In this document: positions 36,308-62,558 of the stretch, piece by piece
Position numbering within the stretch: the first letter of the stretch is position 1
Layout of the letters: each line of letters opens with the position of its first letter
Sequence record: OP114734.1
DNA from: Escherichia phage vB_ESM-pEJ01
Length of the DNA stretch: 64,000 nt
Reading direction: 5' to 3' (one strand)
Position numbers and translations under genes: made by a program
Notes under the pieces: generated by a model
Databases searched by the model: none
What the model saw: the letters and a program-made list of their open reading frames with translations, nothing else
What the model was told of the DNA's origin: nothing

Positions 36308-37486
36308 TCAAGCACTAACTTTTTTCTTTACTGCTTTCACCTTCTGGCGAATTGCTCGAATCTCTTCGATCTCTTTTTCAGTCTCTTTAACAATTTCTTT
36401 GCGATTCTGAATATCTGTATCTAGATTATCATCAAGTTTAGGCAGCATGTCAATCAAGAACTTTTTAAAGTCTTTCAGGTTTCGGATAACAGCACCTTCA
36501 CCCATTACCGCCACGCCTACACCATCCGGCAGATCACCAAACAGCTTAACCAGTTCAGACAGATGATCATGATCTTCTAGTGCTTCTTCCGGTTCAGATG
36601 GCAGTTCAACAAAGTTATAACGTTCATCATTGCTGATCAAGTGATACCAGCAAAGCCCGAAAGATTTCGGTGTATATTCTACACCATCAATTTCAACCGC
36701 GTCAACACTTCCATAATCATCTACTTTAGTTACCTTAAATCCTTGTCCCAGCTTTTGAACAATTTCAACAACATGACTTGATACAGTTTCAGCGGTAAAC
36801 CAATATGGCAAATTATGCTGATTTGGTTTGTAGCGTTCACCTACTTTAAATCTCTGACCATCCGCTTGCATAGAATGAAATTGTTGTTTCGTGATTTCCG
36901 CGAAGTATTCAAATTCGCTACCGTCAAACAAGCAATTCCATTGATCACAAAAACGATCTGCCTTAACAGTTTCACCTTTCGCGGTGATCATGGTAGCTGA
37001 TCCGTGCAATTCTTCTTCAACTAAAAAGCCATATTCGACAAAATCAACAAGTTTCATAGCTTCTTTGTGATCTGGATCATGCTCTCCCCAGAATCGCTTA
37101 AATTCTTGCAAACCTTCTGGGGTAAACGAATAACATTTACCTTTTTCAAAGTAAGTCGGCATTGCATCCTCTTTCTTGTTCATCGCTTCGTATGCCTCTT
37201 TTGAGATACGTTTAAAGAATTTACGCTCATCGTGCATAATCATAGTAGCCCAATAATAAACGATATCCTCAGCGGAATAAACTACATCTCCAGCTTCAAT
37301 AGTAATAACATGACCGTGGTCATCTTTTTCTAATACTTTAAAGCCCTTTTCTACGATTTCAGCAACCCGAATATGACCACGGCGCGAAGCATCGGTCAGA
37401 ATAATTGAATAGCGAGAAAAGTCTAGAAACTCATCTTTACCGCCTTCACGGAATGCATAGTAATGACCTTCAAAGAATTTAGCCAT
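36308..37486 (-). CDS. modular paralog family member with three tandem N-terminal domains
   Basis: Three repeats (...GFKVLEKDDHGHVITIE...; ...GFLVEEELHG...; ...GFKVTKVDDYGSVDAVEIDG...) plus C-terminal LSELVKLFGDLP helical module; GAGGATTATATTATG start. Confidence 0.6.
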   Translation of the reverse strand: MAKFFEGHYYAFREGGKDEFLDFSRYSIILTDASRRGHIRVAEIVEKGFKVLEKDDHGHVITIEAGDVVYSAEDIVYYWATMIMHDERKFFKRISKEAYEAMNKKEDAMPTYFEKGKCYSFTPEGLQEFKRFWGEHDPDHKEAMKLVDFVEYGFLVEEELHGSATMITAKGETVKADRFCDQWNCLFDGSEFEYFAEITKQQFHSMQADGQRFKVGERYKPNQHNLPYWFTAETVSSHVVEIVQKLGQGFKVTKVDDYGSVDAVEIDGVEYTPKSFGLCWYHLISNDERYNFVELPSEPEEALEDHDHLSELVKLFGDLPDGVGVAVMGEGAVIRNLKDFKKFLIDMLPKLDDNLDTDIQNRKEIVKETEKEIEEIRAIRQKVKAVKKKVSA

Positions 37487-45207: not shown

Positions 45208-45984
45208 TTACACGCGAGCACCGTAGATCGTGCCTACTTTATCCCAGCGTGGAGCATTACCAGTAACAGCCTTACCAGCAGCACCGCCGTTATATTCTGT
45301 ACCGTTACCTTGAGTATTACATCTTCCTCCAGCAGCACCGACATTACCACCCGAACCGCCTGTATATGCACTAAGAGACCCCTCACCAACAGATCCTTTA
45401 CCAGGAGCGGAAATAGTACCAGCAGTTGCACCGGAACTCATATGAGAGGAAGACCCACCAGCACCGAATGGGCGACCACCGCCGCCGCCAAATACTAGTC
45501 GACCCCTGTTACCGCCGCCACCGCCGCCACCGCCGCCAGCGATAGCACCGTTATTTGTAATTCGTAGACGTGTACCGATAGCGTTATTGATTGCGTTTCC
45601 ACCAGCAGCGCCAGCAGCGTTACTACCACCATTACCCCCACGTCCGTAGACAGTCACATCGGAGTTGATGATCAGTGTTACATACTCGTTTGTTAACGAG
45701 CTAGGGAAGTCAAGACAAGGAACGCCAGTAGATTGGGAAACAATATTACCTGTGATAGTAATTACTACAGGAGTAGATCCTTGTGCTTTCATCCAGTTAA
45801 TAAGAGTGTCTTTATTGTAAGAGTTACTAGCACCAATGCTATAATGAATCTCTTTAGAGCGTCCGACCATTGCCGACATATACGCCGGACGACCTAAGCG
45901 TACAGCTTGCATTGCGGCGCTCATCCACCGTTGACCAGTCTCGGACACAGCAGATGATCCTACCCATCCAGAAGATATTGCCAT
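45208..45984 (-). CDS. glycine-rich protein (258 aa) with poly-Gly tracts
   Basis: C-terminal half about 45 percent Gly incl. GGGGGGGGG and GGGGG runs (ccg/cca triplet repeat 45511-45537); ordered N-terminal domain. Confidence 0.55.
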   Translation of the reverse strand: MAISSGWVGSSAVSETGQRWMSAAMQAVRLGRPAYMSAMVGRSKEIHYSIGASNSYNKDTLINWMKAQGSTPVVITITGNIVSQSTGVPCLDFPSSLTNEYVTLIINSDVTVYGRGGNGGSNAAGAAGGNAINNAIGTRLRITNNGAIAGGGGGGGGGNRGRLVFGGGGGRPFGAGGSSSHMSSGATAGTISAPGKGSVGEGSLSAYTGGSGGNVGAAGGRCNTQGNGTEYNGGAAGKAVTGNAPRWDKVGTIYGARV

Positions 45985-59932: not shown

Positions 59933-60151
59933 TTATTTATATCGCTTTCTCTCGCGACGTTTTTGATCTTCTTCCTTGATAGAGTTAAACGCATCAAAAA
60001 GACACATGACACTGATAATGAACATAACCGTATTTTCTACGATATCCCACGGCTTCGCATCAGTACAGATCCCCCAAACGGTAAGAAATGCAAATAGTGC
60101 AGAAGAGATCACAAGCATGATACTTGCTAAGATATAAAAAGTCATTTTCAT
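59933..60151 (-). CDS. small membrane protein (72 aa)
   Basis: Hydrophobic helices; basic C-terminus. Confidence 0.45.
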   Translation of the reverse strand: MKMTFYILASIMLVISSALFAFLTVWGICTDAKPWDIVENTVMFIISVMCLFDAFNSIKEEDQKRRERKRYK

Positions 60152-60342
60152 GGTTTTACCTCAATTCTTCGATATTCATCACACATCCACGCAGTAAGCA
60201 AGAATCCCAGCACATAAGCAACAAAATACGTTAATGCTTCTTCTGGTTTCGTGCTATGTATCATCAGTAAACCAGCGAGAACGGTCTTAACAATTACATT
60301 TAAAATAACTAGCCACGCAAATAATTTCATCGTTTGCCCCAT
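60148..60342 (-). CDS. small membrane protein (64 aa)
   Basis: Hydrophobic helices. Confidence 0.45.
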   Translation of the reverse strand: MGQTMKLFAWLVILNVIVKTVLAGLLMIHSTKPEEALTYFVAYVLGFLLTAWMCDEYRRIEVKP

Positions 60343-60566
60343 TTCGGTCGAGTCTTTTCAAACTTATACATTCCGTAACAATCTCGAATCATCCACGTAA
60401 CAAGAGCACCAGTCAACACAGACAATACACAGAAGAAGTAAAACGGTCCGGTTGCATTATCAACATGAGCAAGCCATGTAAAGAAAACACATGCAAGGAA
60501 CGTGAAGAACATCATAAAGCACAAGAAAGCAAAATATTTTATACTACTCATAGCGCCACCATACAA
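60327..60566 (-). CDS. small membrane protein (79 aa)
   Basis: Hydrophobic helices. Confidence 0.45.
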   Translation of the reverse strand: MYGGAMSSIKYFAFLCFMMFFTFLACVFFTWLAHVDNATGPFYFFCVLSVLTGALVTWMIRDCYGMYKFEKTRPKWGKR

Positions 60567-60654
60567 CAGATCATAAGAAACCCCAACGCAATAAGAATTG
60601 CGTCAAATTTAGTGAACTCAGGTCCACCTATCAACATCATTCGTTCTATTTCGT

Positions 60655-60897
60655 TCATAGCGTACAAAGCCATTTAAAAGCACCACATAAAGCGAGCAGA
60701 ATACTAGGTATAAACGAGATCATAACAAGTTTGCAAAAATCATCTAAGGTAACGCCGGAATAGCTACCTACTGTAACAACACCGATCATCAGACACAGAA
60801 AGAAAACAAATGCAACCAGAAACAAAGTATTGCTAAACAGTTTAGTGATCATTAGACACCCCACGACGATCAATTTCAAAAACTTTTTTACCATCAA
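60655..60897 (-). CDS. small membrane protein (start uncertain)
   Basis: Hydrophobic helices; overlaps upstream ORF by 56 nt. Confidence 0.4.
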   Translation of the reverse strand: MMVKKFLKLIVVGCLMITKLFSNTLFLVAFVFFLCLMIGVVTVGSYSGVTLDDFCKLVMISFIPSILLALCGAFKWLCTL

Positions 60898-61045
60898 CGA
60901 AGCATGTCACAACTGCCTCGTTGACTTCCGCAAATTGTTGTGTTACCCACTTAAGGTCAGAGCGAAACAATGTTCTATTAATAACAAATGTTTTACCGCT
61001 CTTATCCTTACCCATAAATTTTGCTTTAACCATATCCAATTCCAT
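60842..61045 (-). CDS. possible Dmd-like antitoxin (67 aa)
   Basis: MELDMVKAKFMG...QQFAEVNEAVVTCFVDGKKVFEIDRRG resembles my recollection of T4 Dmd (not verifiable here); not in the T4 dmd position. Confidence 0.35.
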   Translation of the reverse strand: MELDMVKAKFMGKDKSGKTFVINRTLFRSDLKWVTQQFAEVNEAVVTCFVDGKKVFEIDRRGVSNDH

Positions 61046-61054
61046 ATTATCACC

Positions 61055-61213
61055 TTATTTGCTAATCGCTAAACCCAATCCGAAGAGAGCACCCGATGCT
61101 ACAGTATACCCGAAAGTTTCAAATGCAGTAAAGATATCTAAGCCACCAGCTAACAGAGTTGCAGTAAACAGAGTACCAGCTACGAACATAAAAGTTTTAC
61201 CGATGAATTTCAT
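61055..61213 (-). CDS. small membrane protein (52 aa), not in ORF track
   Basis: MKFIGKTFMFVAGTLFTATLLAGGLDIFTAFETFGYTVASGALFGLGLAISK; AGGAGAATCAAAATG initiation region and promoter directly upstream. Confidence 0.5.
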   Translation of the reverse strand: MKFIGKTFMFVAGTLFTATLLAGGLDIFTAFETFGYTVASGALFGLGLAISK

Positions 61214-61721: not shown

Positions 61722-61738
61722 CACATAAAAACAAAAAA

Positions 61739-61757
61739 CCCCGAAAAATTTTCGGGG
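61739..61757 (-). terminator. rho-independent terminator 3' of the 2H phosphoesterase gene
   Basis: Hairpin ccccgaaaa/ttttcgggg followed on minus transcript by UUUUUUGUUUUU. Confidence 0.5.
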
Positions 61758-61764
61758 TATAAAA

Positions 61765-62235
61765 TTACAGTTTGGACGTCCACTCCAGGTCTAGATCTTC
61801 GACATACTCATGAGATCGGACAATCTCTAAATCGAACTCTAGGTCAGTGCCAAATTTACGCGCACCAACATCATAAGAAAGCGTGATATGCGGTACATAT
61901 TCAGGATAATCCCACGTCGCGCCTAAAGCAGTGCCTATATCGTGTCTGAATTGCATGTAGTCGCTTTCAAATGCCAACACAAGCGCATTAGTACCGGATT
62001 GAGTTTCAAACACTTTAAGATGGCATAGAGAGCCTAAGAACTTTTCACCCTCTTCTGGTATAAACGGAACATAGACACGAGAATATAAGATAGTGCTATG
62101 CAGTTTATCACGAGGAACGGCATTAGGCAGATCGTAGAACTCCTGCAATTTTTCAATGCGGTCTAGTGTATCCTCAGTGAATTTAACCGCCGCATATGTA
62201 CCTTTAACGGATTCTCTAAACGGGGTCATAATCAA
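61765..62235 (-). CDS. 2H phosphoesterase, Acb1-like (T4 57B position; candidate anti-CBASS cyclic-nucleotide phosphodiesterase)
   Basis: Two H-x-T/S motifs (HSTILYS and HITLSYD) about 90 aa apart; about 155 aa; adjacent to 57A-like gene. Confidence 0.55.
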   Translation of the reverse strand: MIMTPFRESVKGTYAAVKFTEDTLDRIEKLQEFYDLPNAVPRDKLHSTILYSRVYVPFIPEEGEKFLGSLCHLKVFETQSGTNALVLAFESDYMQFRHDIGTALGATWDYPEYVPHITLSYDVGARKFGTDLEFDLEIVRSHEYVEDLDLEWTSKL

Positions 62236-62558
62236 GCCTCCGTGATCAGTTCTACTTCCTCTTCTGCGTCTTCCTCTTCTGCGTCTTCCTCTTCTGCGTC
62301 TTCCTCTTCTGCGTCTTCCTCTTCTGCGTCTTCCGCTGCTTCGTCTTTAGGGAGAAGTGCTTTCACTTCTTCGACAATAGCATCAAGGGAAACAGTGCCG
62401 TTTTCGTCTGGCTGAATACCAAGAATGCGTACCAGTTCCATCAATACACGCTCACGATCTTTCAGTTGGCCTTCTAAGAATGCGGCCTTTTCTTGAGTGT
62501 CAAACAGACGTACTTTCAGGACATTAATCATTTGTTCATGCTGATTGGACATATTCAC
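62232..62558 (-). CDS. 57A: gp57A-like tail-fibre assembly chaperone with acidic repeat tail
   Basis: N-terminal coiled-coil; position upstream of gene 1 as in T4; C-terminal (DAEEE)n encoded by 15-nt tandem repeat. Confidence 0.55.
   Translation of the reverse strand: MNMSNQHEQMINVLKVRLFDTQEKAAFLEGQLKDRERVLMELVRILGIQPDENGTVSLDAIVEEVKALLPKDEAAEDAEEEDAEEEDAEEEDAEEEDAEEEVELITEA
62261..62335 (-). repeat. 15-nt tandem repeat cttctgcgtcttcct x about 5 (codes EDAEE repeats)
   Basis: Direct tandem copies at 62261, 62276, 62291, 62306, 62321. Confidence 0.85.

Follow-up and report, generated by a model that had tools for sequence, protein, structure and literature searches.

A five-copy tandem repeat in the acidic tail of the tail-fibre chaperone gene 57A of Escherichia phage vB_ESM-pEJ01

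Introduction

Towards the end of a small chaperone gene, Escherichia phage vB_ESM-pEJ01 carries a perfect tandem array of a 15-nt unit. Is this array one state of a length-variable locus that could tune the chaperone, as an earlier note on this DNA had proposed, or is it an isolated insertion that the protein tolerates? The phage is a productive lytic Krischvirus (RB49-like) deposited as OP114734 (PMC11767321), and the paper describing it, supplements included, makes no mention of 57A or of a fibre chaperone for this ORF (PMC11767321). In T4, gp57A is required for the trimerisation of gp12, gp34 and gp37 (PMC3004832). It is a small, highly helical protein present as a mixture of coiled-coil trimers, hexamers and dodecamers (PMC3004832, PMC5899706), and it has been proposed to prevent the non-specific aggregation of fibre monomers (PMC3004832). 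We analysed a stretch of 64,000 nt from the pEJ01 record (hereafter referred to as the window), and compared the array and its gene with those of related phages and of the wider protein family.

Results

The repeat array

The array was the highest-scoring of the three tandem repeats detected by TRF in the 64-kb window, and was delimited by this program at 62255-62347 (period 15, 6.2 copies, 96% matches, score 165). The initial description was borne out: GAAGACGCAGAAGAG occurs five times without a mismatch, and in codon phase these copies read (EDAEE)5. The position first given for them, 62261-62335, corresponds to the same array but is 2 nt out of codon phase (Table 1). Nor does the repeat form the very C-terminus of the protein, as had been stated: eight further residues, EVELITEA, and the stop codon come after it. 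No other copy of GAAGACGCAGAAGAG was present in the window, and no match to this unit was obtained in 100 dinucleotide-preserving shuffles, so the array is real and far beyond chance expectation. In single-copy alleles, the four bases directly after the unit, GAAG, are the same as those with which it begins; this is why the perfect run extends over 80 rather than 75 nt. Four of the five units are extra with respect to all relatives, amounting to an in-frame insert of 60 nt, or 20 amino acids. An ORF of 57 aa on the plus strand (SSSASS..., 62242-62415) was rejected as a mechanical antisense by-product of the repeat.

Table 1. Coordinates of the repeat array, gene 57A and neighbouring features in the window.
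Feature	Position	Strand	Description
Gene 57A, tail-fibre assembly chaperone gp57A	62232..62552	minus	106 aa + TGA; assigned from PHROG 1002, Pfam GP57 and gene order
gp57A conserved core, residues 1-68	62349..62552	minus	family-invariant L12, K13 and D18; near-invariant R15; predicted helices
Hypervariable acidic linker of the tail	62259..62345	minus	codons 70-98 here, 70-78 in single-copy relatives; E, D, A, S and K only
Maximal perfect period-15 run	62255..62334	.	80 nt = 5.33 units
Five-copy array of GAAGACGCAGAAGAG	62259..62333	minus	head to tail, 0 mismatches; gene 57A codons 74-98 = (EDAEE)x5
57A terminal codons EVELITEA and stop	62232..62258	minus	invariant in the DNA of 13 relatives; rare protein variants exist
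Gene 57B, Acb1-family anti-CBASS protein	61765..62229	minus	154 aa; PF23474, E=1.4e-51
Terminator-like hairpin	61738..61758	minus	9-bp GC-rich stem + T-run, directly past the 57B stop; closes the 57A-57B stretch

Another perfect coding repeat in the window served as an internal control. It consists of 3.1 copies of ACCGCCGCC at 45511-45538, within the ORF at 45208-45984 (minus strand), where it gives rise to nine consecutive glycines in a gp38-type tail-fibre adhesin (PF05268, E=1.2e-72). No change in length was found for this repeat: all 12 of the relatives listed matched the full 777 nt, and TB34, the sole record in which the ACCGCCGCC repeat is annotated, also has 3.1 copies. The gp38 repeat contrasts in this respect with that of 57A. 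The remaining repeat was weak, with a 21-nt period (37255-37294; 1.9 copies, 78% matches), and lies in an ORF of 392 aa (36308-37486, minus strand).

Identity and start of gene 57A

The protein matched the PHROG 1002 profile (“tail fiber chaperone”) with E=6.2e-26, residues 3-79 aligning with profile positions 4-80 of 81. The match to Pfam GP57 (PF17594), obtained with the ORF of 108 aa, had an E-value of 4.5e-6 and a score of 26.8 bits, just below the 27-bit cut-off; for single-copy relatives of the pEJ01 protein, a precomputed PF17594 match is present. The order of genes in the window is that of a gene 3-like tail completion protein, the dNMP kinase gene 1 (PF21448, 4.5e-68), 57A and 57B. 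RB49 and JSE have an identical order, with 57A explicitly annotated, and 57A also adjoins the dNMP kinase gene in Aeromonas and Klebsiella phages. The two profiles and the position between gene 1 and 57B confirm the suggestion that the repeat-bearing gene encodes a 57A-like chaperone. The GenBank product name of the corresponding protein (UYE95425.1), “tail fiber”, is therefore imprecise.

We placed the start of 57A at the ATG at 62552, which is preceded at a spacing of 8 nt by GGAG (62564-62561; predicted anti-Shine-Dalgarno pairing energy -7.5 kcal/mol) and matches the annotated start in most of the relatives read. The GTG at 62558 proposed by the ORF finder was rejected: it lies two codons upstream of this ATG, too near the Shine-Dalgarno (SD) sequence. 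The Skers record annotates the start of 57A at the position equivalent to this GTG.

The layout of the pEJ01 protein is MSNQ...VKALLPKDEAA-(EDAEE)x5-EVELITEA. The motif LK.R.FD is present; in an alignment of 39 sequences including the window protein, L12, K13 and D18 were invariant and R15 was at least 90% conserved. An AlphaFold2 monomer model, with the family alignment as input, predicted helices at residues 2-44 and 56-66. Block-mean pLDDT values were 84-94 for residues 1-40, fell to 73 by residues 61-70 and were 51-57 over the tail. T4 gp57A is oligomeric, whereas the model is that of a monomer, and low pLDDT is a mere proxy for disorder. With a pTM of 0.44, the model defines little beyond one long helix. 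A search for a solved structure of any gp57A relative found none, the best match having an E-value of 0.57. At 106 aa, the protein lies outside the size range of the family (73-93 aa; 79 aa in T4), but the 20-aa insert accounts exactly for the excess, and the core has the usual length. Small size describes gp57A proteins without defining them, so the size of the pEJ01 protein is no argument against its membership of the family.

Copy number in related phages

The exact 106-aa sequence was found in a single record, UYE95425.1, from the 166,422-bp sequence of vB_ESM-pEJ01 itself. A 1601-nt query around 57A retrieved 58 Krischvirus records other than OP114734, with 96-99% identity, the best being FL15 (99.1% identical over 1.6 kb). 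Every one of these matches spanned 1530-1546 nt, some 60 nt less than the query itself. The gene was read in 13 relatives. In 11 of them it was 261 nt long, with a single unit, and the unit of FL15, kaaroe and KFS-EC was exactly GAAGACGCAGAAGAG (EDAEE), while that of RB49 encoded EDAKE. The other two relatives had a 252-nt gene resulting from two different 9-nt deletions at the same spot.

The same picture was obtained with larger collections. All 29 homologous clusters in a collection of 5.8 billion protein clusters were 83-88 aa long, and when 1.84 billion representatives (50% identity) were searched exhaustively with HMMER, every gp57A family member retrieved had 73-93 aa; this search also matched three long coiled-coil proteins, which were set aside as not belonging to the family. 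With a single unit, the backbone of the pEJ01 protein (P0080) occurs on 76 contigs. Exact look-ups, in which one substitution would hide a match, found neither this backbone with two, three, four, six or seven units nor the two-unit forms of three other gp57A backbones. The 30-nt DNA pattern formed by two tandem units had no match in the viral contigs of IMG/VR or in the genomes of GTDB.

Eight metagenome loci from JGI and ENA did match this 30-nt pattern. They were rejected as gp57A alleles, since tblastn with gp57A or its core gave no match to them at a threshold as permissive as E=10; as they encode unrelated acidic-repeat proteins without similarity to gp57A, the match reflects convergent low complexity. 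On the JGI contigs Ga0194129, Ga0194123, Ga0255221, Ga0194118, Ga0255211 and Ga0194113, a protein with long acidic repeats of the forms (DAEEE)n and (EEEPK)n contains a 30-nt string identical to two pEJ01 units, and beyond the repeat it does not resemble gp57A.

The five-copy array is a private expansion from one to five copies, and does not belong to a polymorphic series of alleles: a multi-copy array was absent from every relative examined, which indicates a single private jump rather than a graded polymorphism in copy number. The expectation of length variation was thus borne out in part. The site does vary in length within the genus, where alleles encode 83, 86 or 106 aa, but the number of repeats does not vary in a graded manner. 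The earlier note had added that a repeat absent from all relatives would be no more than lineage-specific low complexity. This is what was found, whether relatives were assessed by span (58 records), by reading (13 records), through the 29 clusters and the family representatives or by exact look-up, and by that note's own criterion the array is therefore lineage-specific low complexity. The expansion is also recent, since the five copies are identical and, once the 60 nt are removed, the pEJ01 gene differs from that of kaaroe by one synonymous base.

Constraint and composition of the tail

The segment in which the insert lies evolves differently from the rest of the gene. Among 11 single-copy alleles, 12 of the 27 nucleotides of codons 70-78 were variable, mostly non-synonymously and with E, D, A, S and K as the only residues, as against 13 of 234 nucleotides in the remainder of 57A, 12 of these being synonymous (Fisher's exact test, P=2.6e-7). 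At least two distinct 9-nt deletions also map to codons 70-78, and all changes in this segment leave it acidic. Codons 70-78 are thus the hot spot of the gene for substitutions and indels alike, with acidity retained and sequence weakly constrained, and the core is under strong purifying selection.

The same tendency is apparent across the family. The tails of all 38 family members aligned carry a net negative charge, although their sequences cannot be aligned; they are 3-22 aa long (median 13 aa), with a net charge of -1 to -9 (median -5). The pEJ01 tail, by comparison, has 38 aa and a charge of -24, whereas that of sister alleles has 18 aa and a charge of -6 to -8. For the whole protein, the charge at pH 7 is about -12 when one unit is present and about -28 when there are five. 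The insert leaves intact the helical core, EVELITEA, the ribosome-binding site of 57B and the open reading frame.

The junction with 57B and the downstream region

The ATG of 57B (62229) lies 2 nt past the stop codon of 57A, and its Shine-Dalgarno sequence, GGAGG (62241-62237; predicted anti-SD pairing -9.5 kcal/mol), is located within the last 57A codons (T-E-A). With the SD inside the end of 57A and a gap of only 2 nt, the extreme tail of the gene (62227-62241) doubles as the translation-initiation region of 57B; in the Makalu records, a ribosome-binding site is annotated in the terminal 57A segment. The last 27 nt of 57A contained no variable site, versus about 1.6 expected from the synonymous rate elsewhere. 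As this deficit is not significant, we make no claim of nucleotide-level constraint imposed by the ribosome-binding site.

In many related phage records, 57B is labelled “RNA ligase” (after PHROG 755) or “hypothetical protein”. The Makalu records annotate a terminator at the position homologous to that of the hairpin following 57B. Just downstream of this hairpin, on the same strand, is a near-consensus sigma-70-like promoter (TTGACA, 17-nt spacer, CATAAT; 61721-61693). Further on, the stretch at 59933-61213 (minus strand) is occupied by back-to-back small ORFs of 41-80 aa with overlapping starts and stops, the products of which are strongly hydrophobic and membrane-like.

Discussion

Origin and tolerance of the expansion

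The array is probably best explained as a recent, lineage-private slippage expansion that is tolerated, and nearly neutral, in a disordered acidic tail of gp57A. The GAAG that follows the unit in single-copy alleles would provide a 4-nt microhomology from which a first duplication might be seeded, through slipped-strand mispairing or unequal recombination, and once two 15-nt copies were present, further gains by slippage would be easy. The tail itself may be an unstructured polyanionic extension through which chaperone oligomers, and the complexes they form with unfolded fibre chains, stay soluble and repel one another. In such an entropic bristle or charge shield, composition would count and exact length would not, and this role would account both for the drift of the segment and for the viability of a lytic phage that carries 20 extra residues there.

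The origin and uniqueness of the expansion are much firmer elements of this explanation than its neutrality. The grounds for near-neutrality are two, the relaxed constraint on the segment and the viability of the phage, and a tail of 38 aa and -24, far beyond the family maxima of 22 aa and -9, could have a phenotype. As for the proposal that the repeat tunes the chaperone, nothing in these data shows tuning: the insert sits in the one segment of the gene that is weakly constrained in sequence, and this location argues for tolerance instead.

Alternative explanations

Adaptive tuning, in which the longer polyanionic tail changes the function of gp57A, is unlikely. Charge repulsion could shift the equilibrium between trimers, hexamers and dodecamers, the T4 protein being just such a mixture (PMC3004832). 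Alternatively, by analogy with Hfq, the tail could act as a longer tether or a stronger autoinhibitor folding onto the basic LK.R motif; the core does have a family-invariant K13 and a near-invariant R15, and acidic disordered tails autoregulate Hfq, another oligomeric chaperone (PMC5606850). The pEJ01 tail is also an extreme outlier in length and charge, and tuning might suit the distal tail fibre of this phage, the subunit of which is unusually divergent (43.8-78.1% identity; PMC11767321). However, the five-copy allele is known from a single genome, neither the more than 300 contig observations nor the wider family include an intermediate or convergent expansion, the insert lies where 57A is least constrained, and the perfect identity of the copies is a sign of recency, not of selection. 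A more specific version, in which a subunit charge more than doubled and a longer tether to EVELITEA retune the oligomer equilibrium or the grip on unfolded fibres, and so help in the assembly of the divergent distal fibre and in broadening the host range, is very unlikely. If this version were true, fibre assembly would be under the control of an evolvable trait, the length of the gp57A tail, which might contribute to the broad host range of pEJ01 on E. coli and Salmonella.

An artefact of assembly or library preparation, with a real copy number that is lower or otherwise different, is improbable. The genome was assembled with an old version of SPAdes (3.4.1) from Illumina HiSeq X reads only, obtained from a TruSeq Nano library, the preparation of which includes PCR (PMC11767321). 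De Bruijn assembly of short reads or library PCR could thus have altered the array, which, at 80 nt, is longer than the smaller k-mer sizes, and the single record has no independent counterpart in Logan or ENA assemblies. Against this, reads of about 150 nt, typical of the platform, would span the 80-nt array together with unique flanking sequence, and tandem repeats are usually collapsed rather than expanded by assemblers. Moreover, the insert consists of exactly four in-frame units, in a clean ORF with the downstream ribosome-binding site intact.

It is also highly improbable that the repeat acts at the level of the mRNA. Each unit adds an SD-like AGAGGAAG, with a predicted anti-SD pairing of -6.0 kcal/mol, versus -7.5 for the SD of 57A and -9.5 for that of 57B, and the four extra sites, which lie 30-90 nt upstream of the start of 57B (Acb1), would change ribosome pausing or standby loading and thereby the expression of 57A or 57B. 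The location of the 57B SD inside the 57A tail and the 2-nt gap between the two genes are in favour of such an effect. The unit contains no ATG, GTG or TTG, and the repeat therefore creates no new start; the SD of 57B is already much stronger, one such SD-like site is already present in the single-copy allele, and comparison with relatives gives no signal of an effect. Whether internal SD-like motifs influence elongation is itself disputed, which also counts against this explanation. Finally, a contingency locus, that is a hypermutable repeat kept by selection for high-frequency switching or diversification of the chaperone, is effectively refuted by the comparative data and hardly credible, despite the perfect coding array at a local indel hot spot of the genus, as a 15-nt unit is a multiple of three and changes in copy number cannot switch the frame, all other relatives examined in the genus and wider family have one unit or none, and an array must already exist in a lineage to serve as such a locus.

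Significance

On present evidence, the expansion of 57A matters little and is an ordinary curiosity within the known gp57A family. It does show that a viable phage tolerates a gp57A acidic tail doubled in length, with its net charge tripled to quadrupled, and it is in this sense a small natural experiment on a chaperone for which there is no solved structure. Codons 70-78 would be a safe site for the insertion of tags or linkers in Krischvirus gp57A. Were the five-copy allele found to alter the assembly of fibres, the mechanism of gp57A could be approached through it in a simple way. The array is also a practical flag, as a perfect 80-nt repeat within an assembly based on short reads only.

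Comparison with known systems

The pEJ01 protein belongs to the gp57A family of T4-like phages. It shares an identical 68-residue core and EVELITEA with P0080, the common Krischvirus allele, and, with the 86-aa gp57A of Krischvirus (RB49, JSE, KFS-EC), the gene order (gene 3, the dNMP kinase gene 1, 57A, 57B), residues L12, K13, R15 and D18, and an acidic tail. It differs from the rest of the family in its four extra EDAEE units, which give it 106 aa as against 73-93, and a tail of 38 aa and -24 as against medians of 13 aa and -5.

The array resembles in-frame, minisatellite-type repeats generated by slipped-strand mispairing, being perfect, with a unit divisible by three, flanking microhomology and a location in a low-complexity region. 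Unlike polymorphic coding minisatellites, 57A has one known expanded allele and no series.

The C-terminal domain of Hfq, with its autoregulation by an acidic tip (PMC5606850), offers a parallel of another kind: a small oligomeric chaperone with an acidic disordered extension, variable in length and poorly conserved, as the gp57A tail would seem to be. The two proteins are not homologous; the clients of Hfq are RNAs, and its tail competes with nucleic acid for basic patches on the rim. The likeness is one of analogy only.

A further parallel may lie with entropic bristles and charged solubility tags (PMC11066018, PMC7503639), which, like the gp57A tail, are of low complexity, strongly charged and predicted to be unstructured. 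The tail has the properties by which such bristles are recognised, in that composition is kept while sequence and length drift, and a role in the solubility of an aggregation-prone complex is, by this analogy, plausible. Those tags are mostly engineered or long eukaryotic sequences, whereas the gp57A tail is a natural appendage of a phage chaperone, 3-22 aa long across the family and 38 aa in one isolate.
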